Origin: a virus
Virus record (IMG/VR): IMGVR_UViG_3300025941_000016
Location: 35,987-99,986 of that record
Length of the DNA stretch: 64,000 nt
Reading direction: 5' to 3' (one strand)
The position numbers were made by a program, and so were the translations under genes. The notes beneath the pieces are model-generated. The model searched no databases, was not told the origin of the DNA, and saw nothing but the letters and a program-made list of their open reading frames with translations. This document shows positions 12,047 to 61,775 of this stretch, in pieces; the first letter of the stretch is position 1, and each line of letters starts with the position of its first letter.

Positions 12047-12123
12047 GGGAGTCTCCTGCGGTCTGCGCGGTCGAGCCCACCCCCGGTGCGACCGCCTGCA
12101 CCGGGGGTGGGAGAACGGGGGAT

Positions 12124-15294: not shown

Positions 15295-17910
15295 TCAGAT
15301 CATTGGAGCCCCAGTGAGGACAACCGCGGGTTCGTCGTCGCCAGCCGGCGCCGTCGCCGGACTTGGGGTGCCGGTGAGGATCGCCCCGCCAGCCGTCCCG
15401 CCGTAGGAGCCGCCGCCGTAGCCGACATCCCCGTAGCCGACCGCATCACCCGGCCCGGCGCTGTCGTCGAGGCCGGTGAGGATCGCGGTCACGATCCGGG
15501 CGAGCGCGTCGGAGTCATCGAGCACGACCGTGTCGACGCCGCCGTTGACCGCCGCGTCGATGTGCGCCTGGTCGACTGCCCGTGAGGATTCGGAGGCGGT
15601 AGCCGTGGCCGACATCGGGCCGACAGTGTCGGCGCCTGTAACCCCGTCGACGCCGAACGCGGTGACGGCGAGTCCGGTCTGGTCGGCCGCAGAACCAGCG
15701 TCCGTGCTGGCCATGCCGATTGTCGGGGCCTGCTCGCCGACGGCGGCCTGGTCGAGTCCGGTGACGTTGGCGGACAGCGATCCGATCGCCTCAGCCAGCC
15801 CACCTTGGTCGGGTGTGGCCGCGGTGACCCCGATCGTGACTGCCACACCGCCGTAGGGGTCGACACCGTAGCCGGCCTCGCCGTAGCCGTCGCCGGCCAT
15901 CAGCGCGGACACGGTGTCAACGTCGGCGACCTGTGCAGACAGGGCTGTGAGGGTGTCGATGGCGACATGGTTATCACGCGAGGTCAGCGTGACCTGCGGG
16001 GCACCCTCAGCGACCGAAGCTGTATCTGTGTCGGACAGGCCGACGAGCGCCACCTCGGCTACCGCACCGCTGTCACTGGCGGTCAGGCTGGCTGCGACTA
16101 CCGGGGTTTCGCCCGCAGTCGCCCCATCCCCCCCGGCCACCGTGGCATTCAGCGACACCACCGAGTCGGCCCCGGTGATGCTGTCCATGCCGAACACAGT
16201 TGGGGACAGAACAGTCGCATCGGCGGCGGTAGCACTGTCCGAGCTGACCAGCAGGTAGGTCAGCGCACTACTGTCCGCCGCCGTGGCCGCATCAACACCG
16301 GCAACGCCGATGGTCGGTGTCGCCTCGACGAACACCGCCGTGTCCGAGCTGGACACCGACGGGGCGAGTGCCGCGCCGTCGATGGCCGTGATGCCATCAA
16401 CGGCGGCCAGTGAGATGAGGGGAACATCGCCGCCGTAGGAGCCGCCGCCGTAGCCGACATCCCCGTAGCCATCGCCGGACCCGGTCGCGGCGACCACATC
16501 AACATCGGCAACCGAGGCGGTCAACGAAACCAGCACATCGGTTGCGGTGACCGTGTCGCTGTCCGATTTGACAACTACGGTGGCCGTCGTTTCGGAGGCG
16601 GTCGCACTATCCGAACTCGTAGCCGTGGCGGTAACCGTTGCCAGGTCGACCGCGGTGCTGCTGTCCGTATCGCCCAGCGCGGCCGTGATGGCCGCAGCGT
16701 CGGTAGCTGTCACCGTGTCTGTCGACGTCGGGCCGACGACAGGGATGCTTCCCGTGTCGGCGGCGCTGCCGGCGTCCACCGAGGTCAGCGAGGCGGCGAC
16801 CTGGCCAACATCAGCCAACGTCGCGGAATCGACAGGACCAGTCAGGGAGATCGCCGGGCCAGCCTCGCCGAACGTCGCCAAGTCGACGATCGAGGTCAGG
16901 CTGATCGCCAGTGCGGCCCCGTCGGCGAGGCTGGCCGTGTCCGAACCGGTGAACGTGGCGGTGAGCGCTGTCAGGTCCGCCGCGGAGGCCGCATCCGACC
17001 CGGCCACAGACGCCAACAGGGCGGTGACATCGGCAGCCGTAGCGGTGTCCGCCGAGGACAACACGGTGGTGATGCCCGCGGTTTCAGTACCAGTCGCAGT
17101 GTCCGCCGCCGCCGGAGTGACAGCGATCGAGACGGGGCTTCCTATCCCGCCGCCGTAGCCACCCTCGCCGTACAGGCCCGCCCCGTAGCCACCCGAGCTG
17201 GCGTCCATCTGCGCCGTATCCGACGCGGTCACCGTCGCCGTGATGCTGGCGGTCGCTGTGGCGGTCGCACTGTCCGAGGCGAGCAGCGTGACCGTCGCCG
17301 TCTCGGAGGCAGTACCACTGTCCGTCGACGTTTTGGCAACAAGCGCCTGGACTGCGGACGCCACGGTAAACGGCGTAGCGAACACGACGTCGCCGGACGA
17401 GTTGTACGTGTCCAACCCGGCCCGGTTGCCGCCGGTGATCGACGAGTCCGAACCCGACCAGATCGCCGACCCGTTCAGATCAACCTCAAGGGCGGTGCCA
17501 TACACCGAAAGAGTGATCGTGCAGGGAAACGACGGTGCGGTGAACGCGACCGACGTCAACACGCTGACCGTGCCGGACACGCATTTCAACACATACATGG
17601 TGCCCGTGTCGAAATGAAAATCAGCCGCGTAGAAGCTCTGCGACGACAGCAGGGTTCCACTGTTCGACATGCGGGCCGCGACCCCGGCGCTGCGGCCCGA
17701 CGGGGCAGCGTTGACCGTGGCCGTGACCGCCATGTCCGCTGACGGCACCGACGTGTTGTCACACCGGGCGTAGGCCACCGCGCTGCCCAGCGTCACCGTC
17801 GCAGTGTTACTGCCAGCATTAACCCAGTTGCCGGTGATCTCCGTCCACGACTGGTCGCCACCAAACGCCGGGCTCGCCGACGGAAACGTCTCGGTGTAGT
17901 AGGTGGTCAC
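15295..17910 (-). CDS. Long acidic Ala/Thr/Ser/Asp repeat fibre or scaffold with a lectin-like N-domain and four YG motifs
   Basis: 871 aa with roughly 15-aa D-x4-5-D/E repeats and four GYGx2-3YGx3YGG motifs. Confidence 0.7.
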   Translation of the reverse strand: MTTYYTETFPSASPAFGGDQSWTEITGNWVNAGSNTATVTLGSAVAYARCDNTSVPSADMAVTATVNAAPSGRSAGVAARMSNSGTLLSSQSFYAADFHFDTGTMYVLKCVSGTVSVLTSVAFTAPSFPCTITLSVYGTALEVDLNGSAIWSGSDSSITGGNRAGLDTYNSSGDVVFATPFTVASAVQALVAKTSTDSGTASETATVTLLASDSATATATASITATVTASDTAQMDASSGGYGAGLYGEGGYGGGIGSPVSIAVTPAAADTATGTETAGITTVLSSADTATAADVTALLASVAGSDAASAADLTALTATFTGSDTASLADGAALAISLTSIVDLATFGEAGPAISLTGPVDSATLADVGQVAASLTSVDAGSAADTGSIPVVGPTSTDTVTATDAAAITAALGDTDSSTAVDLATVTATATSSDSATASETTATVVVKSDSDTVTATDVLVSLTASVADVDVVAATGSGDGYGDVGYGGGSYGGDVPLISLAAVDGITAIDGAALAPSVSSSDTAVFVEATPTIGVAGVDAATAADSSALTYLLVSSDSATAADATVLSPTVFGMDSITGADSVVSLNATVAGGDGATAGETPVVAASLTASDSGAVAEVALVGLSDTDTASVAEGAPQVTLTSRDNHVAIDTLTALSAQVADVDTVSALMAGDGYGEAGYGVDPYGGVAVTIGVTAATPDQGGLAEAIGSLSANVTGLDQAAVGEQAPTIGMASTDAGSAADQTGLAVTAFGVDGVTGADTVGPMSATATASESSRAVDQAHIDAAVNGGVDTVVLDDSDALARIVTAILTGLDDSAGPGDAVGYGDVGYGGGSYGGTAGGAILTGTPSPATAPAGDDEPAVVLTGAPMI
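15398..16470. repeat. 41-bp perfect direct repeat at 15398-15438 and 16430-16470
   Basis: ccgccgtaggagccgccgccgtagccgacatccccgtagcc occurs twice and encodes GYGDVGYGGGSYGG. Confidence 0.9.
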
Positions 17911-19490: not shown

Positions 19491-21106
19491 AGTGCGCTCC
19501 AGGTGAGGCGACCCAGCCGAAGCGCGCGGGCAGAAGAGGCAAGAGTTCGCAGCCGGGCCGTGTAGCCAAGCGCCGCCGACGAAGACGGAAGATTGGTCGT
19601 ATGCGTCGCGGCCAACGTCCCGTTGACCCAGAACCGGACCTGCGACACGGCGCTGTTGATCTCAATCAGCAGCTCGTACGCGGTATCCAGCACAATCGCC
19701 GACGTCGTGGTTGTGACTGTCGCCGTCGTCCCCGAGCTGGTGACCGTGCGCCAGACCGCCGTCCCGTCAACCCCGGTGTCGTATCTGAGCCATGCACCCT
19801 GCGCGGTGCTGTACGAGCCGGTCGTCGCCGGACCGGCGTTGCCCGCAATGTCGGCGGAGACGAGGCCGACCGCGAGCCGCGTCGACGTGATCGCCGAAGC
19901 GTCGGTACGAATCCGGGCGTAGACGTAGGGCGCCCACCTGGGTTGGATCACCCCGAACGGGGAAATCAGCCCGGCGTCAACCGACGAAGCCGCTGTGGTC
20001 GTGTACCGGACCAGCGGCCCTTCCGCCTGGTCGTCGGAGGTCGGCGTGATGTTGACGGTCGCGACGGTTGGTGGCGAGACCCCGTCGAGGATCAGCGTTG
20101 TATCGGCGCCCGGTGCGGCAACAGACGCGACCCGCCGGTTCACAGGGGCCAGCAGCTCATCCTCATGCCCCGCCGACACGCGCGCCCGAGGGCGGCCGTT
20201 CCGAACCCAGATGACCGAACCCTCGGCAGTGGTGAACGCCCCTTCGCCCTGATGCGACCCGTCCGGGTTGCCCGTCGGCGGGGTCGACGAGTTGCCGAGC
20301 GCGAGCACGTCCACGCCGCCGGCGGGGTCACCGGCCGCACCCCGGATACCGCCGCCAGCGGTGATGACAGATGCCCGGGTGGTGACTGTCGGCGCGGTAC
20401 CGATCGCATCGGAGGGCTGCCCCGAATACATGGTCGCTCCGCCGACCTGGCCGACGCCGAAGACCGGGGCGCCGGCATAGTCGCGGGCGAGGATCAGGTT
20501 TTTCGTCGACGATTCTCTGCCGCGTACGACCAGCCCGTCATGGGAGGCGTCGGGTAGGAGGAGATTCCAAACGCCTTCGTTGGTGGAGCCGGTGCCACCG
20601 AAGTTCCGCTGAACGGTGCCACCGGACGTGTAGCTACCAGAGCCGGTCGTCGATTGGAGAGTGAACTGGGTGGGCGCAACCTTGGTGATCGTCTTGACGC
20701 CGTTGACGCCTGTGATGCCGCCGACGTTCGCGATCGTCACCACGTCGCCCGTGCCGTAGCCATGGGATGCGCTGGTGGTGACCGTGACCGTTGTCGTACC
20801 GGTCACGTTGGAGATCGTCAGCGGCGCGTCACCGGTTTGGATCGTCCCGTCGGCGAGCAGACCCACCCGGGCCAACAGGTCTGCGGCCTGCTTGACCGCG
20901 AGCACCACCGCGGACGTGGAAGCGGCCGCGGTCTGGGTGGCTACAGCGCCGATGTCGGAGGGGGCGATCGCGTCGCCACCACCTGTGACGTGCTGATCGG
21001 CATGGGTGTTGACCCGGTTGACGATGGTCGTCAGGGCCGTGTTGAGGGTGGTGTCCCAGGCGGCCTGGTCGTGTGCTGGCAGTGTGGGGTTGATAGGTCC
21101 AGTCAC
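19487..21106 (-). CDS. Virion appendage protein with WDTxLN N-terminus and FCCH-like domain
   Basis: PTLPAHDQAAWDTTLNTAL...THADQH; FCCH-like VTTSASHGYGTGDVVTIANVGG; lectin-like C-terminus. Confidence 0.7.
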   Translation of the reverse strand: MTGPINPTLPAHDQAAWDTTLNTALTTIVNRVNTHADQHVTGGGDAIAPSDIGAVATQTAAASTSAVVLAVKQAADLLARVGLLADGTIQTGDAPLTISNVTGTTTVTVTTSASHGYGTGDVVTIANVGGITGVNGVKTITKVAPTQFTLQSTTGSGSYTSGGTVQRNFGGTGSTNEGVWNLLLPDASHDGLVVRGRESSTKNLILARDYAGAPVFGVGQVGGATMYSGQPSDAIGTAPTVTTRASVITAGGGIRGAAGDPAGGVDVLALGNSSTPPTGNPDGSHQGEGAFTTAEGSVIWVRNGRPRARVSAGHEDELLAPVNRRVASVAAPGADTTLILDGVSPPTVATVNITPTSDDQAEGPLVRYTTTAASSVDAGLISPFGVIQPRWAPYVYARIRTDASAITSTRLAVGLVSADIAGNAGPATTGSYSTAQGAWLRYDTGVDGTAVWRTVTSSGTTATVTTTTSAIVLDTAYELLIEINSAVSQVRFWVNGTLAATHTTNLPSSSAALGYTARLRTLASSARALRLGRLTWSAL

Positions 21107-21159
21107 GGGGGCTCGTCACCCCCGTGACTCGACTAGATCAAGTTATGAAGCCTCAGGCC

Positions 21160-29790: not shown

Positions 29791-30108
29791 TCAGGTCACC
29801 ACGTCCGCGGCGGTCTGCACGATCGTCGTCAGCGCCGACACCTGCGACGCCACATCGGCGGTCAGCACCGGGTAGGAACAGCCAGACGGCGTCACATGCA
29901 CCTCAATACCCCGGCCCTGCGGGGCCAGCCGGAGGATTGACGTGCACTTGGACGACGACAGGTAGGTGTTGACCTGGTTGACGACCGCGGCGAGGCCGGG
30001 GCCATTGAGGCTGAACGTGTCCCGGGCCGACAGGTTGAGCTGAGTGAGGCCGTTGGAGCCGGCCGTCGTTTCGATCTGGAACGGCGACCCGGTAATCGGG
30101 TTCGGCAT
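29791..30108 (-). CDS. Hypothetical virion-associated protein
   Basis: Preceded by AAGGGGG; first gene after the capsid. Confidence 0.6.
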   Translation of the reverse strand: MPNPITGSPFQIETTAGSNGLTQLNLSARDTFSLNGPGLAAVVNQVNTYLSSSKCTSILRLAPQGRGIEVHVTPSGCSYPVLTADVASQVSALTTIVQTAADVVT

Positions 30109-30130
30109 GACGCCCCCCTTTCGTGGGACG

Positions 30131-30172
30131 CCAGCGGGCCGTCCGCCGGAGTAGAGACGGACGGCCCGCTGG
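30131..30172 (-). terminator. Strong hairpin after the major capsid gene
   Basis: 15-bp inverted repeat ccagcgggccgtccg / cggacggcccgctgg, without a clear U-tract. Confidence 0.6.
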
Positions 30173-30190
30173 GGAACGAGAAGGGGGGCG

Positions 30191-31969
30191 TCAGTTCGCC
30201 GGCTGAATGCCGACGAGCATCGACGAGCGGTCCGGAGCCTCGGCAGCCAGCGTTCCAGTCCAATACACAGAGCAATCGTAGCTGAGCTGGATTACAGGCC
30301 AATCAATGGCCATGTAATCTTGCACATTCCAGATCTTCCAGGCGTTGGAGATGTTGACGTTCGGCTGGGTGATCGACGACTGGAGGATGATCGCGTTGCC
30401 CTGCGGCAGATACGGGTGAACCCGCATGTCGACGACGCGGCCGGTGACCTGGTTGAGGATCGCCGTGACCACACTGCCAAGCTTCACGCCGGCGAGTTGG
30501 TCTTCCGAGATCTCCAGCCGGTAGTTGCTGGCCGACTGGCCTCGGAGGCTGTTGGAGATCTGCATCCGGTCCTGGCCGGACAGGAAAATCTCCTCCGGGT
30601 CGGCGCGGGTGTTGTCCCAGGTCTTCGCGAACGCCTGCTGGAATTCGGCACCCGGGTTCGAAGTGGAGAACGGGGCATTGAGCCGGCCGACGTAGCCGGT
30701 GGTGCTGGCGACGGAGTGAATCCACGGAATGATGCCGTCGTACGAGTTCGCAACCGCCGACTGGCCGTCGACCGACGCCAGGTTGAGCGACGTCCCGTCG
30801 GTCGCCGTCCAGGCGGCCACCGTCGAACCGGTGGTGGGCAGCGCACCCTGGAGGGTCAGGGTCAGGGTCGGCGTCCGGCCGATGCTGAGACCGTTCGGGA
30901 ACGCCGGGCCCCGATACAGGTAGCGGGAGGCGTCACCGGGGTCGGACGACCCAGTCGACACGAAGATCTGGTAACCGGTCGCACCGACGACCGGGTTGGG
31001 GATCGTGATGTCCACAACCTGGCCGGTGCTGACGGCGATACCCGCGGAAGCCGAACTGGCCGCCGAGACGCCGAACTCACCCGACTCGGCGACGACCTTG
31101 ACGTACACGTTGGTCGTGAAGCCGGTCAGCGCCGTCTCACCGGTCGCCGCGGTGCGGGCCGAACCGGTCGGCGTACCCGAAGGAGCGGCGAGCGCACCCG
31201 CATAGCCGCCAGCAGTGCCACGCCCGTAGAGGATGACCCGCTCTTCGGTCATCATCGACGAGAACAGCGTCGACTGGCGGTCGAGTTCCCGGGTGTCCTG
31301 GAACCCCATCGCAGTCAGGTAGGTGAAGAACGACTGCTCGCCGCTGAGACCGAACTGCACATAGGGAAGGGACACGTCGTCACCGGCGAGCGAGATCTTC
31401 TTCGGCCGGTTCAGCCACAGCGGGTTCGCCGAACCGGGGTTCGCGAAATTGACCTGCGATGGGTCGGAGAAGCCGGGGTGAACGACACCCACGCCGCCGG
31501 TACCGGAACCGGTGATGCCGGTGATCCGCTTGAACTTGTGGGACGTGCCCATGCCCTTGTTGCGGGGAATCCTGTTCCTCATCGGCGTCAGGACCGGGGC
31601 GAGCATCTTCGCGGGCGATTCGAGGTCGTAGGCAACCAGACCGGCGGGAACCGGGCTGGTCGTGGTGATGTCCTTCGCCAGGAAGTCGGCGCCGAGCGCC
31701 TGGGCCGCTGCCGCTTCGATCGCGGCAAGCTGGCCGGCGTCCGCACCCATCGACCCGAACGCCTTGAACAGGACATCCTTGGCGTTGCCGCCGACTGTCT
31801 TCGTCAGGGCTGGATGCTTGCTGGACATGTCGAGGCCGACATCGCCCTTGACGGTCGACGGAGCGCCGTCGACGGCCATCTTGTAGTTGACCGCGGCGGT
31901 GGTGAGTTCGGCGGGGCTGAGCTTGGCGCCGAACAGGTCGCGGAGGTCACCGTAGGTTCCGGTGGACAT
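30191..31969 (-). CDS. Major capsid protein with an internal Ig/Fn3-like insertion
   Basis: Follows the protease/scaffold gene. Motifs LVAYDLESPAKML...TPMRNRIPR, MMTEERVILYG, VHPYLPQG, DYMAIDWP; very strong codon bias. Confidence 0.85.
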   Translation of the reverse strand: MSTGTYGDLRDLFGAKLSPAELTTAAVNYKMAVDGAPSTVKGDVGLDMSSKHPALTKTVGGNAKDVLFKAFGSMGADAGQLAAIEAAAAQALGADFLAKDITTTSPVPAGLVAYDLESPAKMLAPVLTPMRNRIPRNKGMGTSHKFKRITGITGSGTGGVGVVHPGFSDPSQVNFANPGSANPLWLNRPKKISLAGDDVSLPYVQFGLSGEQSFFTYLTAMGFQDTRELDRQSTLFSSMMTEERVILYGRGTAGGYAGALAAPSGTPTGSARTAATGETALTGFTTNVYVKVVAESGEFGVSAASSASAGIAVSTGQVVDITIPNPVVGATGYQIFVSTGSSDPGDASRYLYRGPAFPNGLSIGRTPTLTLTLQGALPTTGSTVAAWTATDGTSLNLASVDGQSAVANSYDGIIPWIHSVASTTGYVGRLNAPFSTSNPGAEFQQAFAKTWDNTRADPEEIFLSGQDRMQISNSLRGQSASNYRLEISEDQLAGVKLGSVVTAILNQVTGRVVDMRVHPYLPQGNAIILQSSITQPNVNISNAWKIWNVQDYMAIDWPVIQLSYDCSVYWTGTLAAEAPDRSSMLVGIQPAN

Positions 31970-34366: not shown

Positions 34367-34781
34367 CGGTGTCCTTGGGGGCGTCGGCCGGCGGGCTCTG
34401 CGGATCGTTTGCCGCGCGCCAACGCTGGTAGGCGGCGTACACGTCACGCTCCTGCTTCCAGCCGTCCGACGGGAAGACGAGCGCAGGTATCGACGGATCT
34501 TCCAGCAGTGTCGCCGCCGTGACCCGGTGTTGGCCTTCGACGCAGAGGAGGGAGCCGGACTTTCGGACGCCGACCAGTACGGGATGGTGCTGCCGCACGT
34601 CTTCGGACGCCTTCATCAGCGCGCCGACCTTGGACGGCTGGAGCGGGCGCTGATAGTGAACCCGGTCGATCATGATGAGTTGAGGGTCCAGATCGCACGG
34701 GGTCAGCGGGTCGTCCAAGCCGAGGTCTTCGGCGGTGTACGTCGGATGGTCGGCGGGCTCGTCAGCCAACAGGACCACCAA
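34356..34781 (-). CDS. ParB/Srx N-terminal-like domain protein
   Basis: YQRPL...PVLVGVR...CVEGQHRVTAA...IPALV. Confidence 0.75.
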   Translation of the reverse strand: MVVLLADEPADHPTYTAEDLGLDDPLTPCDLDPQLIMIDRVHYQRPLQPSKVGALMKASEDVRQHHPVLVGVRKSGSLLCVEGQHRVTAATLLEDPSIPALVFPSDGWKQERDVYAAYQRWRAANDPQSPPADAPKDTDAG

Positions 34782-35127
34782 ACCCCGGATTGCGGCGCCT
34801 GTCGCGCAGTGTCTGCCGCTGTATCTCTTGGTAGAGTCGCTTGCCGTCGATGTGTACCGGGGTGCCGTCGGGAAGGCTGCCGATTGGTGCGTGCTGCCTT
34901 TCGGCGTGGATCGCGTCGACCTTGGCGTGTAGGTCGGCGAGCGCCTGTTCGTGGGCGTCGTGACGTGCGTGCATCTCGTCGCGGTGTTCGGCGAGCTTGC
35001 GGCCGAAGTGGACCTTGGCCCGCCAGAAGGCGACCATGGCGGCGAGCGGCGCCCAGATCAGCGAGGCGATCAGGTTGGTGAGGACCGAGCCGTTGGGGAA
35101 TCCGAACAGATCGACGAGCGTGCCCAT
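34762..35127 (-). CDS. Membrane protein whose C-terminus resembles the tape measure C-terminus
   Basis: TM helix VLTNLIASLIWAPLAAMVAFW, His-rich coiled coil, then VHIDGKRLYQEIQRQTLRDRRRNP. Confidence 0.7.
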   Translation of the reverse strand: MGTLVDLFGFPNGSVLTNLIASLIWAPLAAMVAFWRAKVHFGRKLAEHRDEMHARHDAHEQALADLHAKVDAIHAERQHAPIGSLPDGTPVHIDGKRLYQEIQRQTLRDRRRNPGFGGPVG

Positions 35128-36639: not shown

Positions 36640-37140
36640 TCAGAAGATGCTGCGGCCACCACGGGGTGCGCCAGGTGCTTCGCGCATGAGCTGATCCAGA
36701 TCGCGCAGTTCGCGTTTCCGCCCGGGATCGTCGGGCTTCGCGGCCTTGAACGTAGGTGTCGGCCGGTGATGTAGCGGCACTGCGACTGTCGGTGGCACTG
36801 ACGGTTTCACCCGCGCCACAGCGTCGTCTGCCGCTACCTCCCCGGCTTTCCACCCTGCCCGGTAGACCTCGGTCAGCGCCGGGCCGAGCACACCCTTACG
36901 GGCGTGCTGGTCGAGGATCATCCGTATCTCAGCCCGCAGAACCGCCGGGTCGGTGGTCGTCCCAGACGGCCAGCGGGACGTGAGCACGTTCGCAACCTGC
37001 TCACAGTCGATAATCCGGCTGGCAGCCTGGGATACCTGCTTCGCGAAGCGCGGCCCTAGCTGGTCGTGGGCTTGGAAGCCCAGCCATGCCGCCCGCTCCC
37101 GTTGCCGGTTGCGGGCTTTCGGCTCGCCCCCCGCCACCAC
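36640..37140 (-). CDS. N-terminal part of the gpF-like protein, overlapping the portal 3' end in the +1 frame
   Basis: Helical segment LTEVYRAGWKAGEVAA of the kind that precedes the WxxWxPG motif found in 35131..35931. Confidence 0.55.
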   Translation of the reverse strand: MVAGGEPKARNRQRERAAWLGFQAHDQLGPRFAKQVSQAASRIIDCEQVANVLTSRWPSGTTTDPAVLRAEIRMILDQHARKGVLGPALTEVYRAGWKAGEVAADDAVARVKPSVPPTVAVPLHHRPTPTFKAAKPDDPGRKRELRDLDQLMREAPGAPRGGRSIF

Positions 37141-39139
37141 CCGCCTTGCGGAGCTCGGCCGCGGTCGCCTTCGCCAGGCTTGCGGCGTCGGCGGGGGAGT
37201 CGTCGAGGACCATCGTGTTCAACGTCCGCGCCGTGTCGTCGTCCACCGTCGTGAACGTGAACGGCCGAGCAGGTGTCTTCCCCGTCTTGGCGAGACGCGC
37301 CGCCCAGGTGGCGAACGCGGACAGTTCGGCGGCACTGGCGGACTTCTCCGCACCCTTCACGGGCTTCTGTGTGTCGCCGGACTTGCCGTTCGCCTTGACT
37401 GGGGGCTTCGAGCCAGCATCCGGGCTGCCCTCGTCGGGGGTCTGCTCGTCGCCGTCCTCCCGCTCGCTGGCGGGAGTGTTCAGCGGCTTCCCGGAGGGCA
37501 GGTTGCCGGCTTGCAGGTTCTGCTTCGCCGCCTCCGCACCGGCCTTGACCGCCTCACCCTGGGCTTCCTGCTGCTCCTGCAACCCTCGCAGGAACTGGGG
37601 GCCCATCCTCGACAGGATGTAGGGTTCGTCGGCTTCGGGCATGTCGGCGTAGGGGGCTAGGCCCATTTCGTCGCGGGCCTCGTTCAGCGTCATCCGGCCC
37701 GACTCGACACGGGCCAGCAGGACGGCGTCGGCGGCGGCTTCGTCTTCCTCTTCCAGGCCGAGGAACCGGAACTCGATCGCCGGGTCCAAACCCAGATACC
37801 GGCGGTTGATCATGTTGAAGATGCCGGAAAGCCACTTCGCCCACGGCAGGATCATCTTCCGGTACTGGATGTTCTCCTGACCCTCGTGATAGCTCGCCCC
37901 ACCCAGTCCGCCGGTTTCGATGAACCCGATCTCCGCCGGGGTCACCTGAAACGACGCGCAGATCAACTTGACGATGTAGGTGTCATACTCGGGCTTGTAC
38001 AGCTCCGAGTTGTCCGCGAACTTCGCCAGCTTCCCACCCGGCAGGCCGATCTGGATGCGCTGCCGCTCCGCGAGATCCCCGGCAAGCTGCGTGTTGATGC
38101 TGCGCCGCCAGCGTTGCATCTCATCCGGCGTCATCCGGACGCTCTCCGGCAACTCCATCAGCGCCAGGGGCAGCGCGTTCGAGTCGAACTGGCGGGTCAT
38201 CCACTCGGCACGCTTCATCCACAGATTGATCCGCACCAGGGCGTTCTCCACCGGGCCGAAGCCGTAAGGGGACGACACCCGCTTGTTCCGCACCGAGTAG
38301 ATCAGCTCGTCGGCTGACCTGCCACCATCAACCGTGCCATCCTTGCCGATGGGTGCGGTGAACTCGCCGCGGGGGAAGCCATACAGGATCTCTTGGAACG
38401 CAGGGTCCGGAGGCTTCGGCCTACGCCCACGATGATCCAACAGCGGCTTGACAACGTCACCTGACATGTTCCACAGCGCGTAGAGATCATTGCCGTAGGT
38501 CAGATTCGCGTGCAGCGGCCAGGCGTCAAGGACCAGCACCTCTTCGAGGCCCACCCACAGCCAGTCGGCGAACTCCAAACCCTCGTCACGGTCCGGGGTC
38601 TGCCAGAAGTCCATCGCCTTGGCGATCTGCGGGGCCAGCTTCTCGCGAAGCTTCTGCTTCGCCTCCGTCTGCCGCAGACCTTCCAGTTCGGCCGCCGCGG
38701 CGATCGCCTTCTCGGAGACGACGATCGACCAGTCCAAACCGCAGACCTCGGTACGGATCACCCGCATGCAGTCCTGGACAATGTCCGTCCGCGCTGCGGC
38801 CCGTAGCGTGTCGAACGGGATGAGCCTGTGTTCGCCGCCGGGGATGTTCCAGCCGACCGGATATTCCCAGGCCCGCGGATCGCTGCGACCATCCGGCCGC
38901 ACCGGGTCGATGCCGTAGGGCGGCAGGGGGGTCAGCGGCCCGAACGGCACCGTGTACGGCAGCTCACGGGGCAGCGGCTCATACGAGCCGACCGGCATCC
39001 CGGATTGCATCGTCGCTAGGGCGTTGGCCTGAGCGGACATGTCCCGGGTTTGCGCGCCGACCGCACGGGCACCGGCCGCATAGCTCGCTTTGTCGAGTCG
39101 GCGGCGCTGCTGGGCACGGCGACGGCTACGGGAGGACAT
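37001..39139 (-). CDS. Portal protein
   Basis: Follows terL. Motifs VGLEEVLVLDA, ELIYSVRN, SPYGFGPVE, ICASFQVTPAEIG, SGRMTLNEARDEMGL. Confidence 0.93.
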   Translation of the reverse strand: MSSRSRRRAQQRRRLDKASYAAGARAVGAQTRDMSAQANALATMQSGMPVGSYEPLPRELPYTVPFGPLTPLPPYGIDPVRPDGRSDPRAWEYPVGWNIPGGEHRLIPFDTLRAAARTDIVQDCMRVIRTEVCGLDWSIVVSEKAIAAAAELEGLRQTEAKQKLREKLAPQIAKAMDFWQTPDRDEGLEFADWLWVGLEEVLVLDAWPLHANLTYGNDLYALWNMSGDVVKPLLDHRGRRPKPPDPAFQEILYGFPRGEFTAPIGKDGTVDGGRSADELIYSVRNKRVSSPYGFGPVENALVRINLWMKRAEWMTRQFDSNALPLALMELPESVRMTPDEMQRWRRSINTQLAGDLAERQRIQIGLPGGKLAKFADNSELYKPEYDTYIVKLICASFQVTPAEIGFIETGGLGGASYHEGQENIQYRKMILPWAKWLSGIFNMINRRYLGLDPAIEFRFLGLEEEDEAAADAVLLARVESGRMTLNEARDEMGLAPYADMPEADEPYILSRMGPQFLRGLQEQQEAQGEAVKAGAEAAKQNLQAGNLPSGKPLNTPASEREDGDEQTPDEGSPDAGSKPPVKANGKSGDTQKPVKGAEKSASAAELSAFATWAARLAKTGKTPARPFTFTTVDDDTARTLNTMVLDDSPADAASLAKATAAELRKAGGGGGRAESPQPATGAGGMAGLPSPRPARAALREAGIPGCQPDYRL

Positions 39140-39155: not shown

Positions 39156-40669
39156 TCAGGTCAGGGGCCGTCTCCAGCCGTCCTGTGAGGTTTGGCCGGG
39201 GAACAGGTCTTCGATGCCCAACGGGGCTGGTGTCTCGTCGGGCGGAAGCTGGGGCTTCGGGCCGGCGGCGTCCTCTTGGGCGAAGACGTGGTTCATGTAG
39301 AACTGCATTCCGCCGATATCTGCAAGATCAGTCATGGCCCAGACCAATGCGTCGACTCGGTTTGGACTCCAGTCGGCATCAGGAGTCCAACTGATCATCT
39401 CGTCTTCGAGGTCAGGTAGTCCGCCGATGTGATGGGCGCGGCCCTGCTCGTAGATCGCCGAGATCGGTTCGGCGCGGATCTTCTTACCGCGGCTGGCCGT
39501 GACCTTCGTGTATGCCACGTTGTGGTCGACATGGCGGATCGTCGACTCGACCATGTCCGCGCCGAAGTTCGTCTCCGCGACGATCCTGTCCGCCTTGTAC
39601 CGGTGGTAGGCGTCGACGGCCGCCCGAGCCCAACCATCCGGGCTGGCCTTCAAGGTGAGGTCTTCCAACACCCAGAAGTGTTCCTGCGCGTCGACGCCGG
39701 CTACGACGATGCCCGTGTGATCGGACTCGTCGTTCGCCGTACCCGCCGGGTCGATGGCGACGACGATGCGGACCAGGGTGGGCAGGTCGGTCAGCGCCCG
39801 ACGATGCTCGTCGATGTTGCCGCGGGTCCACAGGGCACCCGGGTTGTCGTCGAGGTATTCGCCGTACAGCTCCTGGCGGCCAAGACGGGTGCCCTCGTAG
39901 CGCTTGCGCAGTTCCGACAGGGCGGCAGCGGACAGGTTCGCCGCGTTGTCGAATGTCGAGCCGCGGGTGACGACTACCGAGCCGTCATCGCGGCCCATCC
40001 AGTCCTTGAGCAGGATCGATGGCTTCGGTGTGGTCGTGACGATGACCTGCGGGCGGCCGATGCGTAGCGCCGGGGCTAGGCCCTCAGTCCAGGACGCGCG
40101 GGCGTAACGCCACTTGGCAATTTCATCGAACCAACCGCCGGACAGGTTCAGGCCACGGCCTACGTCGGCGTCATCCGCACCCAGCATGTGGATGATCTGG
40201 CCTGTGCTCAGCCTGATCTGCCAGAGCGACCGGTTATACACGTAGTCGACGTGGCGGTTGTTGAGCACGGTGCGAACACCGGCCGGACCTTCGACGCAGA
40301 CCAGCCGAGCGTCGGAGAACGTTTCGGCGACGATCGCCCATTCGGTGGGAGAGCCGTCGGGAGCGGTTGGGGTGTCGAGGACGCGCTGAACCAGCGTCTC
40401 GGCACCCGTTCGACTTTTCCCCAACCACGTCCCGCCAGGATCAGCCAGACGAGCCAGTCGCCGTCAGGTGCCCGCTGGGCGGTCCGTGCATGCTTCCACG
40501 TAAACGTGCCGTGGGGTTCGCCGTCACAGTCGTCGAGGCCGCACGCCCACGGCTTGTCTGCCGTAACGGTGACGGCTTCGAGTTGCTGGCGCAGTTCGAG
40601 CTCCCGCCGAAGGAGGGCGAGGCGTCGTTCAGCTAGGGTCGCCGGTTTCGGCAAGGTCGCGGTGGACAA
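39156..40669 (-). CDS. terL: Terminase large subunit, joined by a -1 frameshift at 40415-40421 (about 504 aa)
   Basis: The 0 frame from TTG 40669 gives WLILAGRGWGK. The -1 frame continues SRTGAE, Walker B WFDE, VTTTP and nuclease motifs AIDPA, D-x-TG, NRVDALVWA. Confidence 0.9.
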
Positions 40670-41123
40670 GGCGGCGCTCCAACTCGGCGATCTCCGCTTC
40701 GATCTGGCCGACGGTTCGGACCTCAACCTTGGTCGGGGCGTCAAGGCCGAGGAGCTTCGCCCGACGGTCTTGGATCTTCAACAGCCGGTCGATGGCGGCG
40801 AGGATGGGTGCGTCGTCTTCCAACGGTTTGCCGTCGTGCCAGATGACGCCGTCTTTCTGGACGGTGTAGTGCTTGGCTTCGAGTACCTGCATGCCGGCCT
40901 GGTAGAGCCGGTCGAGGCGTTCGAGTTCGAGGGCGCGTAGTTCGTCGGCGGTTTCGCGGACGTCGGCGGCGATGATCCGCTGGACGGCGCGGTAGGCGAC
41001 GCCGCGGTTCGGGTAGCGGAGTTCGGTGGCGATCTGCTCGTAGGTCTTGCCTGCGATCCGCATGCGGGCGGCGTCGGCGTCGCGGGCGGCGGTCGCTGGG
41101 TTGTTGCGGGCGCGGGGCGGCAT
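40629..41123 (-). CDS. terS: Terminase small subunit (HTH)
   Basis: MRIAGKTYEQIATELRY...ELERLDRL...RRAKLLGLDAP; directly upstream of terL. Confidence 0.85.
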   Translation of the reverse strand: MPPRARNNPATAARDADAARMRIAGKTYEQIATELRYPNRGVAYRAVQRIIAADVRETADELRALELERLDRLYQAGMQVLEAKHYTVQKDGVIWHDGKPLEDDAPILAAIDRLLKIQDRRAKLLGLDAPTKVEVRTVGQIEAEIAELERRLVHRDLAETGDPS

Positions 41124-41230: not shown

Positions 41231-41395
41231 TCAGCCGTTCCGGTGGTCTTCGAGGTCGTCGCAGTCCCGGTGCCACCACCACCAGCGCTGGCAGCGTCGG
41301 CCGTTCCAACTCCACGAGGTGACGGTGTAGGCGGCACGCTGACCGGTGCTGACCTCGTGGCCGCAGTCCTCGCAGGAGCCGAGAAGGAGGCTCAC
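41231..41395 (-). CDS. 54-aa Cys/His/Trp-rich protein (not in the ORF track)
   Basis: GTGA overlap with 41392..41670; MSLLLGSCEDCGHE...RWWWWHRDC. Confidence 0.5.
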   Translation of the reverse strand: MSLLLGSCEDCGHEVSTGQRAAYTVTSWSWNGRRCQRWWWWHRDCDDLEDHRNG

Positions 41396-41670
41396 GGCTG
41401 GTCGGATGCCGGGCCGGTCAGGAACGCTGTCAGCTTCTCACTTGCCTCGTCTTCGTCGAGGTCGACGAGAAGGTTCGACCATGTCTCAGCTGGGTCGGAA
41501 GCACCGGAAGGAAGTTCGGTCCAGTCTTGCTGTCCGGGACCGTCGAAGCGCCAGTGGCGTTTGCAGTCGTCACACTCGAACACCGAGCCGGCGGCAAACC
41601 CGCCGACGGGCGGCTTCTTGCAGCGCGTCGCCGGATGTGTCGCCTCGGGAATCCTGTTGATCCACGGCAT
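41392..41670 (-). CDS. Small Zn-binding hypothetical protein
   Basis: H-x4-C...GSVFECDDCKRHW. Confidence 0.6.
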   Translation of the reverse strand: MPWINRIPEATHPATRCKKPPVGGFAAGSVFECDDCKRHWRFDGPGQQDWTELPSGASDPAETWSNLLVDLDEDEASEKLTAFLTGPASDQP

Positions 41671-41817
41671 GTCGGACCCCCGGCCTAGTAGCACTGCCAG
41701 CGGGCGCCGCAGTCGCAGCGCATCCAGACCGGCGGGTCTTGAGACGACGAGGGCAGCCCTTACGGTGGATTCGACGCATGCCCTATTCTAGGGCAAATGT
41801 GCTGGTAGAGTGGCATG

Positions 41818-42030
41818 TGGGGGTTGCGCGCGCCAGCCCCTCCCTGTTCGATCCGGCCGGCAGCGGCAGGGGAATCCGTCGAAAGGCGGCGCGCACTCAA
41901 GCGGAACCGTGATGGTTCCTTGGGGCGGGAGGCGCGGGAACCACCGGGCGTCGCGCCGTAGCCGTGACACCCCCGTAAGGGGCTGACATCTCGGCCCGGC
42001 CTCCCGCCCAACCTACCCGGTGCGCGGTGA
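41818..42030 (+). ncRNA. Structured RNA resembling the c-di-AMP (ydaO/yuaA) riboswitch
   Basis: Nested stems with GNRA loops (GAAA, GTAA) and G-U pairs that favour the + strand. Ordered motifs CGCCAGCCCC, GGGGAA, CTTGGGG, CCCGCCCAACC, ACCCGGT. TGG-TAGAGT lies upstream. Confidence 0.55.
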
Positions 42031-42049
42031 AAGCCCATTCACTGCGATC

Positions 42050-42280
42050 ATGGATCGCATGAACGATTCAGTTGATGTAGACGTGGGGGCGATTGTCGAC
42101 GCCCGAGTAGCAGCCCGAATCGAACGGGTCCGCCGTCGCAGAAAGGAGTTGGCCGAGTTCCAACAGGCACACCGCGAGCGCCGCGTGTACGGCAACCAGG
42201 CCCGCCACCGGGCCAAGCTTGCTCGTCAGGCGTCGCCGTCGACCTGCTCGGCCTCCGAGTTGGCGAAATGCTCGGCGTAG
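42050..42280 (+). CDS. Small basic coiled-coil protein downstream of the structured RNA
   Basis: Antisense to its neighbours; ATG at 42050 or 42059. Confidence 0.5.
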   Translation: MDRMNDSVDVDVGAIVDARVAARIERVRRRRKELAEFQQAHRERRVYGNQARHRAKLARQASPSTCSASELAKCSA

Positions 42281-44513
42281 ACAAGATCCGGGTCGGCGCC
42301 TTCGGCCACTTCTCGGAGCATCCCGAGAAGCGCAGCTTCGGAGATGGCCCACCAGGTGGATGCGGTCTTCGCCATGGCGATCAGACCGCGATCGCCGGTT
42401 CGGTCGCCACCACGGCGTGCATCGCCCCGCAGGGCTCCGCGTCCCACGGACGACCACACTGGCCACAGGTAGGACGGGAACGGGCTGTACGAAGCGCCTC
42501 AGCCCACGCCGCGGCGACAGAGCCAAGCTCAGCAGTCTCAGTCACGCCGCCTCCCATTCGTCGTCGTAGCGGGCACTGGGGGCGCGATGCCTGAGCGGTT
42601 CGAGGTCTGCGAAACGCCACAGCAACGGGCGGTGCCCGGTGGTGAGCTGGGCCGCAGGCTGGATGCCGTGCCGGGCCAACAGTTTCCGGGTCGCCATGTA
42701 GTCACGTTGGGGGTTGTGACGGAAGAAGGTGCAGGCGTCGCGCAACAGCAAGAAGCCCGGAGGCGGCATCGGCAACCTCCGGGCACACTTCTGGACGCAG
42801 CACAGATCCTATACACCTCCGCAGATGGGTCAACAGCGGGGTCCGCGTAGCACGTACCATCAGGCGGTGTCGTGGGCGTCCGGCCGGGGCCAAGGCGACC
42901 GGTGAGCCCCTTGAAAGACTGCGACCCCGGCCACCTAAGCCAGCCAGATCTCCGTCTTGTGGTGCTCACATCCACACCGCTGGTCGCAGGTCCGCCACCA
43001 GCACTGGCCGAAATGGCGCTGGCCTACCGGGTAGTAGCGCCACTCGTAGCAGTCCAGGCAGGTTCCGTCGTCGGGCTGGTCGACAGGTTCTGGGATGCCA
43101 CGCTCGCGCTCAACGCGGGTCTCGTTCCGCTCGGCCGCGTGGCGGGACATGCGGGCTTCCCAGGTGTCCGGGTCAGGCATCGTCGCCGAGTAGTGCGGCC
43201 ATCTTCCCGTGGGCCACGGCCATCCGCTCGTGGAGCTTCTCGCCGTCGGCGCCGGCGTGGGTGTCGATCTCCCAGGCGGACCAGAACGGCACGAGCACGT
43301 CGCGGTCAAGCAGGGGCTGTACCGCGGCGGCCAGTTCCCGGGCCGCGGCTTCGAGGGCGAGCCGACGGCCGTAGCCGCCGTATTCGACGCCCGCGAGGTG
43401 GGTGCCGTCGGCGCCGTGGTGGGGCCGGTCGAACAGGCTGTCGCAGTGCTCGCACCAGTGGCGGTCGTCGGCTGTCATGGCCGACCTGGGATCGCCGAGA
43501 CGAGAAACGACTCTACTCCACCCGCGCCCACCAGTCGCCGGCCGCCTGACAGATGTAGCGGCCCCTCGTACTCGCCTGGCGGCAGGTAGACGGTCACACC
43601 CTCTGGGGTGCTGTCGACGAACTCTTGGAGCGACATGCCGGGGCGGATGACGGCCGGCGTCTCGGTGAACCGCGGTCGCGTGGATCGCGGTTGGCCGGCT
43701 CCAGCCCACATTGCAGTGGTCCAGTCAAGCACCTCGGCGAGGGTGTGTTCGTAGAGCTGGCGCAGGTCGTCAGTCATCGTAGGTATCCCTTCGCTGCTCT
43801 CGGTGCCACGCCTGGCCCTCCCGGCGTCGGGTTACACGGCGGGCCATCTTGGCCCACTGGCGGGCGTTTCGCTTCCCGTGATGGGTGCCGTGGTTCGGGG
43901 CGCCGGGCGGCGTCTCGTCATAGGGGTCGTACATGTACTGCCGCGAGCGGGACAGCATCGGGCCGTTCACCGGGGACGCCACTGAACCCACCGCTTCGCC
44001 TCTCGGTTCCAGCTCGCGCCTTGCATCCCGTTGAGACGGTTCAGATCCGGGCGGGCTCCGGGGGCGTCCGGCCCGCAGCGTTCCCAGCCGTTGTCGGTCC
44101 ACCGGGTCCACCAGCCGAACTCTTCACACTCGGCCTCGCCGGGCCAGCGTCCGGTCCAGATGTCCTTGCCACAGTCGTGGGGTTCCTCGGCGAAACCATC
44201 GTCGTCGTCATCGTCGAAGGTGCATTTGAGTCGCTGGTCGCCCGTCCAGAGGCAGCGTGCAACGTCGCAGCCTTCGGAGTGCTGCTGGCCCGGGTAGGCG
44301 CCGCAGTCGCCGCATTGGGGCTTCGGCTTCCAACCGGCCTGGCGGCCATGCGAACAGGATGCGACGACGGTCGGAGCGTCGTCGCCGGAGACCTCGACCG
44401 CCAGTGTGGGGCAGGCTCGTAGATGGTCGGCGGCACGCTGGGCGGTTAGCGACAGGTCGGCGCGAGCTGGAACTACGCCCTCACGGAAGCGGTCCAGGAT
44501 CTCCGACAGGTTC

Positions 44514-59581: not shown

Positions 59582-61775
59582 CGGGTCGTCTCCGACAGGT
59601 CAAGGTCTGCCGTGCCGTCCAGCAGCGCCTCGGTGGACTCCATCCAGGCGGGCGGCGGCCAAGCGCCCATCCGTGGCGCGAGCATGTAGTCGAGCGCCTG
59701 CCGAAGCCGCTTCCGCAGGCTGGGCACGGCCTGGTCGAGGCGGCCGTACCGGTGCGACTGCTCGGACATGATCCGAACGGCCTCGCTCTGGGCGGCAAGG
59801 GCGCGGGCGCACTGGGCGTTGGCCTCGTCCCGCTCGGCGCGGGCCTGGTCGCGCTCGCCGGTCAGCCGGTCGATCTCGGCGACGAGCGCCGTAACTCCGG
59901 AGCCGGCGAACATGCCCGAGTACGGGTCGCGGCGGGCCTGCGCCACCCAGTCAATGCCGATCAGGTCAGCCATCGGTCTCACCTCCCGACGCGGTAAGCG
60001 CGGCAGCAAGGCCGCGGGTAATGTCCGTGTGCAGGGTGTAGGTGGCGAGGAAGGCCCCGACCGCCAAAGCGTGGAGGCGGTCCCGGTCCCGTCGCAGGGC
60101 GTCCCGTTCGAGGCGGGCCCGCTTCCACGCTTTGGCGGTCGGGGCCTCGGCCAGACGGTTGCGCTCGGCGGTCAGGACATCGAGAGAAGTCGCGAGGCGG
60201 TCGGTCTCTGCCCGCTGCTCCTGGAGCCGGTCAACGACAGCCCTGGAGCCCAGCCCCATCGCCTCGGCCGCGTCGAGTAGCGCGCGGAACGTGGCGACGT
60301 CCACCGAGACGTGGGTCAGTTCGCCACCTTCGACGGCCAGCGTTTCCGTGGCGCAGTCGCCGCCGAGTCGGTCGTCCCAGTAGTCGCCCATGCGGACCAG
60401 GCCATTGCCCTCGGCGTCAAGGGCAAGCGACCATTCCGAAGCGCCTTCCAGCGTCGCCAGAGACCGCAGGGCAGGGATGTCGAGGTCAGGCATAGTCAAG
60501 CTCCCCGTATCTCGGCCAGCACCGTGTCCGGGTCGGGCATCTCGCCCTCCGTCTCCCACTGGCCGTGGGAAACATCCGTCTGGAGCGCGTTTGTGCAGGC
60601 ATCGAGGGTGCCCCAAGTGCCCGACGACCCGAAACCGATTTCCTCGTCCTCGCCGCGGTAGATCGTGAAGTCGATCCGGTACTCAGCCATCGGTCGCCTC
60701 CCCGGTGTAGAGGGTTACCGCGTTGTAGCGGGCCTTCCAGTCGGCGATCTCCGCCCGTAGCCGCTCCACTTCGCCCACCGGGATACCGCCGCACAGGCGG
60801 CCCAGAAGCGTTCCCAGCTCCTCATGCGCCCCGGCCAGAAGGTTGACAATGTCCTGCCGAACCTTCGGGTAGGCGAGTTCATCGCTCGCCCCGGCGATGG
60901 TGACAAGGCGGCTGTCTGCGAGGGCGAGCATGTCCATCGCCCGCCCGGCGGCGTCCACGTCGGCGTCGGTCCACCGCAGGCCGGGAAGTGGGGTGACCGT
61001 GTTCGCGGTCTTCTCGTCAGCCACTGGTCAGGCCCTCCTGTGTGAAGGCATCCGCCAACCGTCGGGCCAGTGCCTGCCGGGCTTCGAGATGGCCCAACAG
61101 ACGGGCATGCTCAGTGGGGCCGTCCTCGACGTCGGGGCCATTTGCGGTCTCCCGCTGGAAGTCATCCCGTTCGGCTAGGAACACGGCAACCACGGCGTCG
61201 AGGGCGCGCAGGTAGCGCTCGTCGGCGTTCGCCTGGTCGATCTGGTCGGCGACGGCCGCCAGCGACTTTCGATGGTCAGCCATCAGAACCCCCTTCGGGC
61301 CAACGGACCACGCCGCCCTCGTTGTTCGCGACCATCTCGGCTCGCAAACGGGCAAGTTCCTCCTCGCTGGCCGGGGTGAGAACCCGGACCCCCGACCCCT
61401 TCCGTGTCACCTCGTCCAGCCAGATTGGCAGCCGGGAGAACCGGCCGGATGGCGTGGCGAACACGATGTCGTCGGGACGGCAAACCAAGGCTTCCTTCTC
61501 AACATCCGTAGCCATCCGCCAGCCGTCTGGGAGGAACGCTGACGGCTGCTCGGTGAACCAGTCGGCGAGGTTGCCGCGGATCGTGTCCGCGGGCATGCCG
61601 GCGCTCACCGGGCCACCCACCGTCGGTCGTGGGACACGGCCCGGCCTTCGTCCTGCAAACGGCGAAGACCCTCCCGCACCTGCGCCGGGGGAAGACTGGT
61701 CAGGTGAGCGAGCTTCCGGGCCCGGACTGGCCGGGGTCCGAGAACCCCGGCCAGCGCCCGCTCTACCGCAGTCAT
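59578..61775 (-). other. Run of small coiled-coil/wHTH hypothetical genes
   Basis: Coupled ORFs at about 59578-59973, 59966-60493, 60496-60690, 60683-61024, 61017-61284, 61276-61596 and 61605-61775. Confidence 0.6.

Follow-up and report, generated by a model that had tools for sequence, protein, structure and literature searches.

What occupies a non-coding stretch of ∼330 nt (about 41726–42058) beside the packaging genes of a phage that otherwise codes on the minus strand? A first-pass annotation had read the plus strand of this stretch as a structured RNA resembling a variant c-di-AMP (ydaO) riboswitch, which would control a small basic ORF or act as a standalone RNA such as a nucleotide-messenger sponge. 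The window, i.e. the whole 64,000-nt stretch of DNA that was analyzed, comprises bases 35987–99986 of a 99,986-bp IMG/VR virus record (G000) that is rated 87% complete and comes from rhizosphere or soil metagenomes. Its G+C content is 66.6%, and codon-position G+C places nearly all credible genes on the minus strand. Window numbering is used for all coordinates unless another locus is named. The packaging genes next to the stretch are arranged as follows.

37001–39139, minus strand: portal
39156–40424, minus strand: large terminase
40629–41123, minus strand: small-terminase-like protein (phrog_645 match)
41231–41395 and 41392–41694, minus strand: two small genes

Over 41700–42030, the G+C values of the three codon-position phases are flat (0.66–0.76). 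The stretch from ∼41700 to ∼42030 is therefore non-coding, and a hidden protein gene in the gap was discarded as an explanation.

We compared the stretch with the only two IMG/VR relatives that carry the locus, L002 and L003, the latter being part of G001, a complete genome of 115,477 bp with direct terminal repeats. The putative promoter elements at the left side of the stretch are the following.

41779–41795: palindrome TGCCCTA-TTC-TAGGGCA, operator-like, between and over both divergent promoters (sequence reading)
41785–41790, minus strand: −10-like hexamer TAGAAT, ∼90 nt 5′ of the first gene (100 aa) of the packaging block
41803–41811, plus strand: extended −10 TGGTAGAGT of the plus-strand unit (string search; identical in L002 and L003)

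When this cassette is aligned locally with that of the relatives, the best match is a 35-nt island (41779–41813), the score of which is reached by 6 of 500 shuffles. Nothing else within the swapped cassette is significantly similar, and both −10 hexamers are kept in L002. We infer that the island is a divergent promoter region, with the plus promoter facing the leader and the minus promoter facing the packaging genes, and that the plus strand is transcribed from a start site near 41818. The extended −10 had been placed at this position by the first-pass annotation, and string search confirms it. The palindrome is specific to this phage; its counterpart in L002 is not palindromic. A second exact TGGTAGAGT occurs on the plus strand at 34829–34837, within the minus-strand gene 34762–35127, and is probably a chance match.

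Downstream of the putative promoter, the plus strand carries a leader of ∼240 nt. Its elements are listed with their folding z-scores or their pairing probabilities (p) where these apply.

41818–41900, plus strand: 5′ part of the leader, with the CGCGCGCC arm, a CCCCT/AGGGG pair, and the GAAA hairpin (z +0.18)
41827–34 and 42019–26, plus strand: arms of the outer stem, CGCGCGCC and GGTGCGCG (string search)
41876–89, plus strand: hairpin CCGTC-GAAA-GGCGG (string search)
41888–95, plus strand: GGCGCGCA, alternative partner of the 5′ arm (string search)
41903–41919, plus strand: hairpin GGAACC-GTGAT-GGTTCC with arms 41903–08 and 41914–19 (p = 0.97)
41923–42009, plus strand: multi-branch module with an 11-bp perfect, G+C-rich closing stem (z −3.28 for 41920–42012)
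41923–33 and 41999–42009, plus strand: the 11-bp stem, GGGCGGGAGGC and GCCTCCCGCCC (p = 0.98)
41943–48 and 42016–21, plus strand: ACCGGG/CCCGGT, a pseudoknot candidate of the earlier reading (string search)
41971–82, plus strand: hairpin CCCC-GTAA-GGGG (string search; p = 0.10)
42024–42045, plus strand: tail hairpin GCGGTGAA/TTCACTGC just 5′ of the start codon (z only −1.6)

All motifs listed by the first-pass annotation were located by string search where it had placed them. Its description of the leader as ∼210 nt of nested stems holds for one part. Against dinucleotide shuffles, the whole 236 nt (−121 kcal/mol) have a z-score of −1.77, with 10 of 200 shuffles folding as well and a z of −1.85 for the minus strand, and the 5′ 83 nt (41818–41900) show no structure beyond chance (z +0.18). 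In contrast, the 3′ 113 nt (41900–42012) fold at −64.8 kcal/mol with a z of −3.62, none of 200 shuffles being as stable, and this is the only segment with the excess stability over shuffled sequence that is generic to structured non-coding RNAs. Because the fold statistics are uneven along the leader, the real structural signal is one compact module and not a 210-nt nested fold; that such a module sits between promoter and ORF bears out the earlier reading on this point.

A control of 150 arbitrary 113-nt windows of the phage gave a mean z of −0.18 (sd 1.17), with 2 of the 150 at −3 or below. In the same control, 41900–42012 scored −3.1 and had the lowest absolute energy of all 151 windows. 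About 1% of arbitrary windows attain a z near −3, and the boundaries of 41900–42012 were picked post hoc. The minus strand of the segment folds comparably (z −3.08). The ensemble computed for the full leader assigns a probability of 0.98 to the 11-bp stem, of 0.97 to GGAACC/GGTTCC, and of 0.91 to a GGGCTGA/TCGGCCC pairing; the outer stem has 0.53, and the GTAA hairpin drops to 0.10 because it competes with the GGGCTGA/TCGGCCC pairing. Inside the module 41923–42009, inner hairpins are predicted at 41946–41972 and 41980–41997. Perfect inverted repeats of 11 bp are not rare as such, ∼12 loci of at least 11 bp being present in the 64 kb and shuffles giving ∼4.75 eleven-base matches each. The GNRA loops (GAAA and GTAA) of this leader, like a UUCG loop in the relative, can be read as such on the plus strand only.

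No intrinsic terminator (G+C-rich hairpin plus U-tract) was found at the element in a scan of 41300–42800, the one weak match of which (42164–42148, minus strand) is at chance rate. Far stronger long hairpins, with arms of up to 24 bp, occur elsewhere in the window. On the minus strand these include 30100–30200 (z −10.7), 60045–60155 (z −7.5), 21095–21135 (z −7.1), 16850–16942 (z −5.0), and 12070–12118 (z −3.9), and according to the ORF list the hairpins at 30100–30200, 60045–60155, and 12070–12118 fall between minus-strand genes. The strong long hairpins are probably terminators or processing sites.

When the window is aligned with its two relatives, it becomes apparent that the leader itself is not shared. 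The flanks of L002 and L003 are 85–94% identical to the window, whereas 41762–42034 has no counterpart; the relatives carry 336 nt in its place, and their homology resumes at ∼42035, within the tail hairpin (42024–42045). Between promoter and ORF, we found no significant local similarity of L002 and L003 to the window beyond the promoter island. The only match between both leader versions is a chance 14-mer, and no short hairpin is common to them.

Directly upstream of the small ORF, the relatives carry a tRNA-like RNA (L002:2832–2962 and L003:2853–2962, the latter corresponding to G001:C1:89466–89575, minus strand). This RNA scores 32.1 bits on RF00005 (cut-off 29). Read on the plus strand of the locus, it possesses clear D and T arms, its anticodon region is enlarged by an insert of 47 nt, and it can form a perfect 7-bp acceptor or an alternative 11-bp stem. 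ARAGORN called no tRNA in it, and it is the sole tRNA-model match in the complete G001 genome. By these models, it is a non-decoding tRNA-shaped RNA. The window element had no tRNA match at E ≤ 10, and ARAGORN found no tRNA in it either. Both kinds of leader occupy the same slot on the same strand, behind the same promoter and directly upstream of the same small gene, and both contain a compact module closed by an 11-bp stem; the window module differs in that it possesses neither a D or T arm, nor a tRNA-model score, nor sequence similarity to the tRNA-shaped RNAs.

Logan contigs of four other soil runs were also compared with the window. Runs X4 and X5 contain the L002-type cassette. A 24.5-kb contig of run X2 keeps exactly 41896–42135 at ∼97% identity and replaces 41726–41895 with 241 other letters, so that the promoter and the 5′ arm of the proposed outer stem are gone in the form that they have in this phage. 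Since exactly 41896–42135 is kept, the breakpoint coincides with the 5′ edge of the module, and since the outer stem and its "switch" partner involve the segment that is replaced in a relative, none of the relatives seen retains the outer stem as a whole. Within the module, X2 differs at 41965 (T>C), which turns a predicted G-U pair into G-C, and at 41935 (C>A), which is an unpaired base. The two changes are consistent with the predicted fold but far too few for covariation. At the scale of the genome, 44% of G000 aligns to G001, its best relative, with 44 gaps of at least 100 nt. As ∼56% of the genome is thus unalignable with the best relative, the leader swap may in itself be ordinary mosaicism and the leader dispensable.

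These comparisons bear directly on the proposed riboswitch. Rfam 15 gave no match in the window at gathering scores, and a scan of 801 nt at E ≤ 10 with lax filters returned only noise, the best matches being miRNA or CRISPR-repeat fragments of 12–16 bits. The ydaO-yuaA model RF00379 (gathering score 38 bits) had no match at E ≤ 10 over the whole 99,986-bp record; in a control, the same model matched in 7 of 14 genomes, with two matches over the cut-off. The Infernal/Rfam check thus detects no ydaO-yuaA RNA in the window or in the whole record. The ydaO-yuaA aptamer is pseudo-two-fold symmetric and binds two c-di-AMP molecules, its recognition residues are highly conserved, and these riboswitches accompany cell-wall, osmotic-stress, sporulation, or K+ transport genes (PMC5575661). 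The phage element resembles them in being a G+C-rich multi-helix 5′ leader with GNRA-capped hairpins in an actinobacterial setting. However, it escapes the covariance model even at E ≤ 10, and its predicted fold has a single stable junction (41923–42009) in place of the pseudo-two-fold pair with its two ligands (PMC5575661). The CGACAG core, already reported missing by the first-pass annotation, is indeed absent by string search. The downstream gene codes for an Arg-rich helix of 60–73 aa and not for a cell-wall, osmotic, or K+ function, a context unlike that of ydaO regulons (PMC5575661).

Control of the small ORF by a riboswitch of any kind meets a further difficulty. Where relatives share the promoter and ORF, the sequence between the two is unrelated and includes the tRNA-like RNA, which is not expected of a ligand sensor governing that ORF; the aptamer conservation among loci sharing a gene that is general to riboswitches is not seen in L002 and L003. 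A diverged c-di-AMP or other ligand-sensing riboswitch controlling the ORF would agree with the multi-stem leader in front of it and with the ability of 41827–34 to pair with either 41888–95 or 42019–26. The alternative partner of the 5′ arm, which had been described as switch-like, is present at 41888–95, but this arm lies in the part of the leader with z +0.18, which is replaced in X2, and neither a terminator nor a start-site-masking platform is also kept by the relatives. Sequence and structure models, as far as they reach, refute the riboswitch identity, and we give even a diverged or different ligand-sensing riboswitch next to no credence. There is no longer reason to follow the c-di-AMP lead or the nucleotide-sponge idea derived from it, the latter being in itself neither supported nor contradicted by the analysis, and as things stand the main value of the analysis is this negative.

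The ORF that follows the leader fares better. It is listed here with a second, overlapping frame.

42059–42280, plus strand: Arg-rich helical protein of 73 aa, 60 aa in the relatives (conservation, model)
42226–42375, minus strand: 49-aa ORF inside a 152-nt insertion

An alternative in-frame ATG is present at 42050, and the start common to the relatives is ATG 42059. Substitutions relative to L002 are distributed 6/6/14 over the codon positions, the N-terminal 28 residues are almost invariant in the three versions, and an exhaustive profile search yielded 13 remote clusters with an RRxxG-xARHxxKLxR core. By this evidence, the small basic ORF is a real plus-strand gene, as the first-pass annotation had assumed; it is under purifying selection and belongs to a small protein family. 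Its structure model is one long helix (residues 9–58, pLDDT 81.5). The ORF has no match in Pfam, PHROG, NCBIfam, or the PDB, and its Atlas scores are below 0.9. With the ORF and neighboring proteins as handles, scans of IMG/VR, JGI metagenomes, and GTDB genomes returned only the relatives L002 and L003, and a word-based protein search returned one cluster.

A wider profile reached two other IMG/VR actinophages, in which the helix forms the C-terminal end of a 185–216-aa protein. At these loci (L156:2569–3123 and L157:2467–3114), an RRxxGLxARHAAKLAR core ends the longer protein beside AAA_25 or DUF3987 genes, and no comparable leader was found there. The AAA_25/DUF3987 neighborhood hints at a nucleic-acid-related role of the helix protein. 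At the other end of the ORF, the 152-nt insertion (42233–42384) is absent from L002, L003, X4, and X5; the joint is 42232/42385, with GAAGGGTGA between. The insertion deletes the stop codon of the relatives, and the plus-strand ORF is therefore 13 codons longer in this phage, so that it overlaps tail to tail with the 49-aa gene by ∼55 nt.

Homologues of the structured module were sought more widely. Neither blastn of the element against 50,697 phage records nor three exact or gapped patterns in IMG/VR gave a match, and no second copy exists in G000 or G001. A stem-pair pattern gave at least 120 matches in GTDB genome contigs, which consist of unrelated Collinsella/Coriobacteriaceae palindromes and scattered chance matches. 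More than 100 Collinsella/Coriobacteriaceae species genomes carry a conserved near-perfect palindrome of 82 or 75 nt that starts with GGGCGGGAGGC and ends with GCCTCCCGCCC, as exemplified by L107:5174–5255 and L036:1670–1744 among loci L034–L153. As a homologue of the module this palindrome was rejected: the interiors are unrelated, and only the 11-nt ends are common. Rfam gave no match on two of the Collinsella palindrome loci. The 18 loci found through the small-terminase-like protein have nothing in common upstream of it; the tRNAs at these loci are of the usual kind and lie far away.

A better description of the locus comprises three elements: a divergent promoter region, a small conserved gene for an Arg-rich protein, and a structured leader that is not conserved. 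We tentatively read 41900–42012, at somewhat less than even confidence, as an orphan structured leader or co-transcribed small RNA that would act by its stable shape and not by ligand sensing. Under this reading, a small plus-strand transcription unit would diverge from the minus-strand packaging operon, their promoters being set back-to-back. From the host-type extended −10 promoter (41803–11), an RNA would start near 41818, the first ∼240 nt of which would be untranslated, followed by the conserved 60–73-aa Arg-rich helical protein from ATG 42059. Within the leader, 41900–42012 alone behaves like a designed fold, consisting of a short hairpin and the 11-bp-closed junction. Such a lineage-specific module may protect or process the 5′ end of the message or be released as a stable RNA, and would fill the slot where the closest relatives have their unrelated, non-decoding tRNA-shaped RNA. 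The X2 changes at 41965 and 41935, the breakpoint at the module edge, and helix probabilities of 0.91–0.98 count for the structured-leader reading; the lack of leader conservation among the phages sharing the ORF, the minus-strand z of −3.08, and window hairpins elsewhere at z −5 to −10.7 count against it. Should the 113-nt module be a functional RNA, it would add to the orphan RNAs of phages, in this case from a lineage of ∼100–115-kb soil actinophages that has been poorly sampled; the presence of a tRNA mimic in the same slot of relatives would then hint that RNA cargo beside packaging genes is exchangeable. It is a decidedly unlikely possibility that the slot after the conserved plus promoter exchanges small unrelated structured RNAs which are co-expressed with an Arg-rich RNA- or DNA-binding peptide and which act in trans, such as by decoying RNA-targeting defenses of the host or tRNA-processing enzymes.

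Apart from the structured leader, the reading that deserves most weight is that the stretch has no RNA-level function and is a G+C-rich mosaic spacer left by recombination, its stems being by-products of composition. The z-scores of the whole leader (−1.77) and of its 5′ half (+0.18), the ∼4.75 chance 11-bp inverted repeats per 64 kb of shuffled sequence, a cassette as unalignable with the relatives as is 56% of the genome, and the failure to find a homologue in phage records, IMG/VR patterns, or GTDB contigs all agree with an inert spacer. We nevertheless consider it unlikely, if by no means negligible, since the 113-nt module has the lowest absolute energy of 151 windows and is matched by 0 of 200 shuffles, the boundary of the X2 block coincides with the module edge, the special tetraloops are readable on the plus strand only, and 240 nt of inert leader would rarely be kept by a phage genome. 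Rather more unlikely is the reading that the element insulates the transcription units meeting here, as a structural barrier that would stop early minus-strand transcripts ahead of the packaging-operon promoter, stop the plus-strand RNA, or do both. Such a barrier could consist of any strong G+C-rich structure, so that its sequence would be free to be swapped, and an 11-bp perfect stem is indeed present in both this cassette and that of the relatives. The location of the element, flanked by the stop codon (42226) of the last minus-strand gene upstream and by TAGAAT (41790–85) on the same strand, the equally good folding of the minus strand (z −3.08), and the use of long hairpins at other gene boundaries of the phage would also fit. 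However, the structure lacks a following U-tract on both strands and the terminator scan is negative here, the module is branched, unlike the simple long hairpins elsewhere, and on the minus strand it is situated 215–325 nt beyond the stop codon, with the antisense of a real gene in between.

A function at the level of DNA, as a cos or pac site, a replication origin, or a recombinase target beside the terminase genes, appears very improbable. The element lies ∼600–900 nt upstream of the small-terminase-like gene, and in distant relatives (Thermobifida phage P1312 and Streptomyces phages Zuko and KimJongPhill) this gene is found 1–4 kb from the left genome end. Yet three long contigs pass through the locus and none ends there, the repeats are of chance size, with no iterons or repeated motifs, and the stretch is G+C-rich and not A+T-rich. 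Moreover, a packaging site should track the terminase, whereas the terminase region and the cassette swap independently.

The order of elements has parallels in other phages. In phage lambda, the early-type promoter pL is followed by a structured leader of roughly 220 nt that includes nutL, and then by the small arginine-rich protein N. The locus described here has the same order of promoter, long structured leader, and small Arg-rich protein, but it possesses no same-strand downstream genes into which to antiterminate, no boxA-like element was identified, and no short hairpin is common to this leader and that of its relatives. N-like antitermination was discarded, there being no plus-strand genes downstream. 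Phage morons, or accessory cassettes, are small genes with a promoter of their own that interrupt an operon in the opposite orientation. The unit resembles morons in its orientation opposite to the neighboring genes, its own host-type promoter, and its mosaic boundaries, whereas a long structured leader is not usual in morons and no flanking terminator was found here. Two further candidates were rejected. At the start site, both versions have an open frame for a leader peptide or leaderless uORF, but the sequences are unrelated; a type III toxin–antitoxin RNA does not agree with the absence of tandem repeats and with a protein that is a 60-aa helix.

The packaging genes themselves show a mosaic of their own. 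Identity to G001 is 87–90% for the portal gene and for both small upstream genes, and the segment 39316–41230, which covers most of the large terminase and the small-terminase-like gene, has no blastn match in that genome. Relative to G001, the segment looks like a packaging-module swap.
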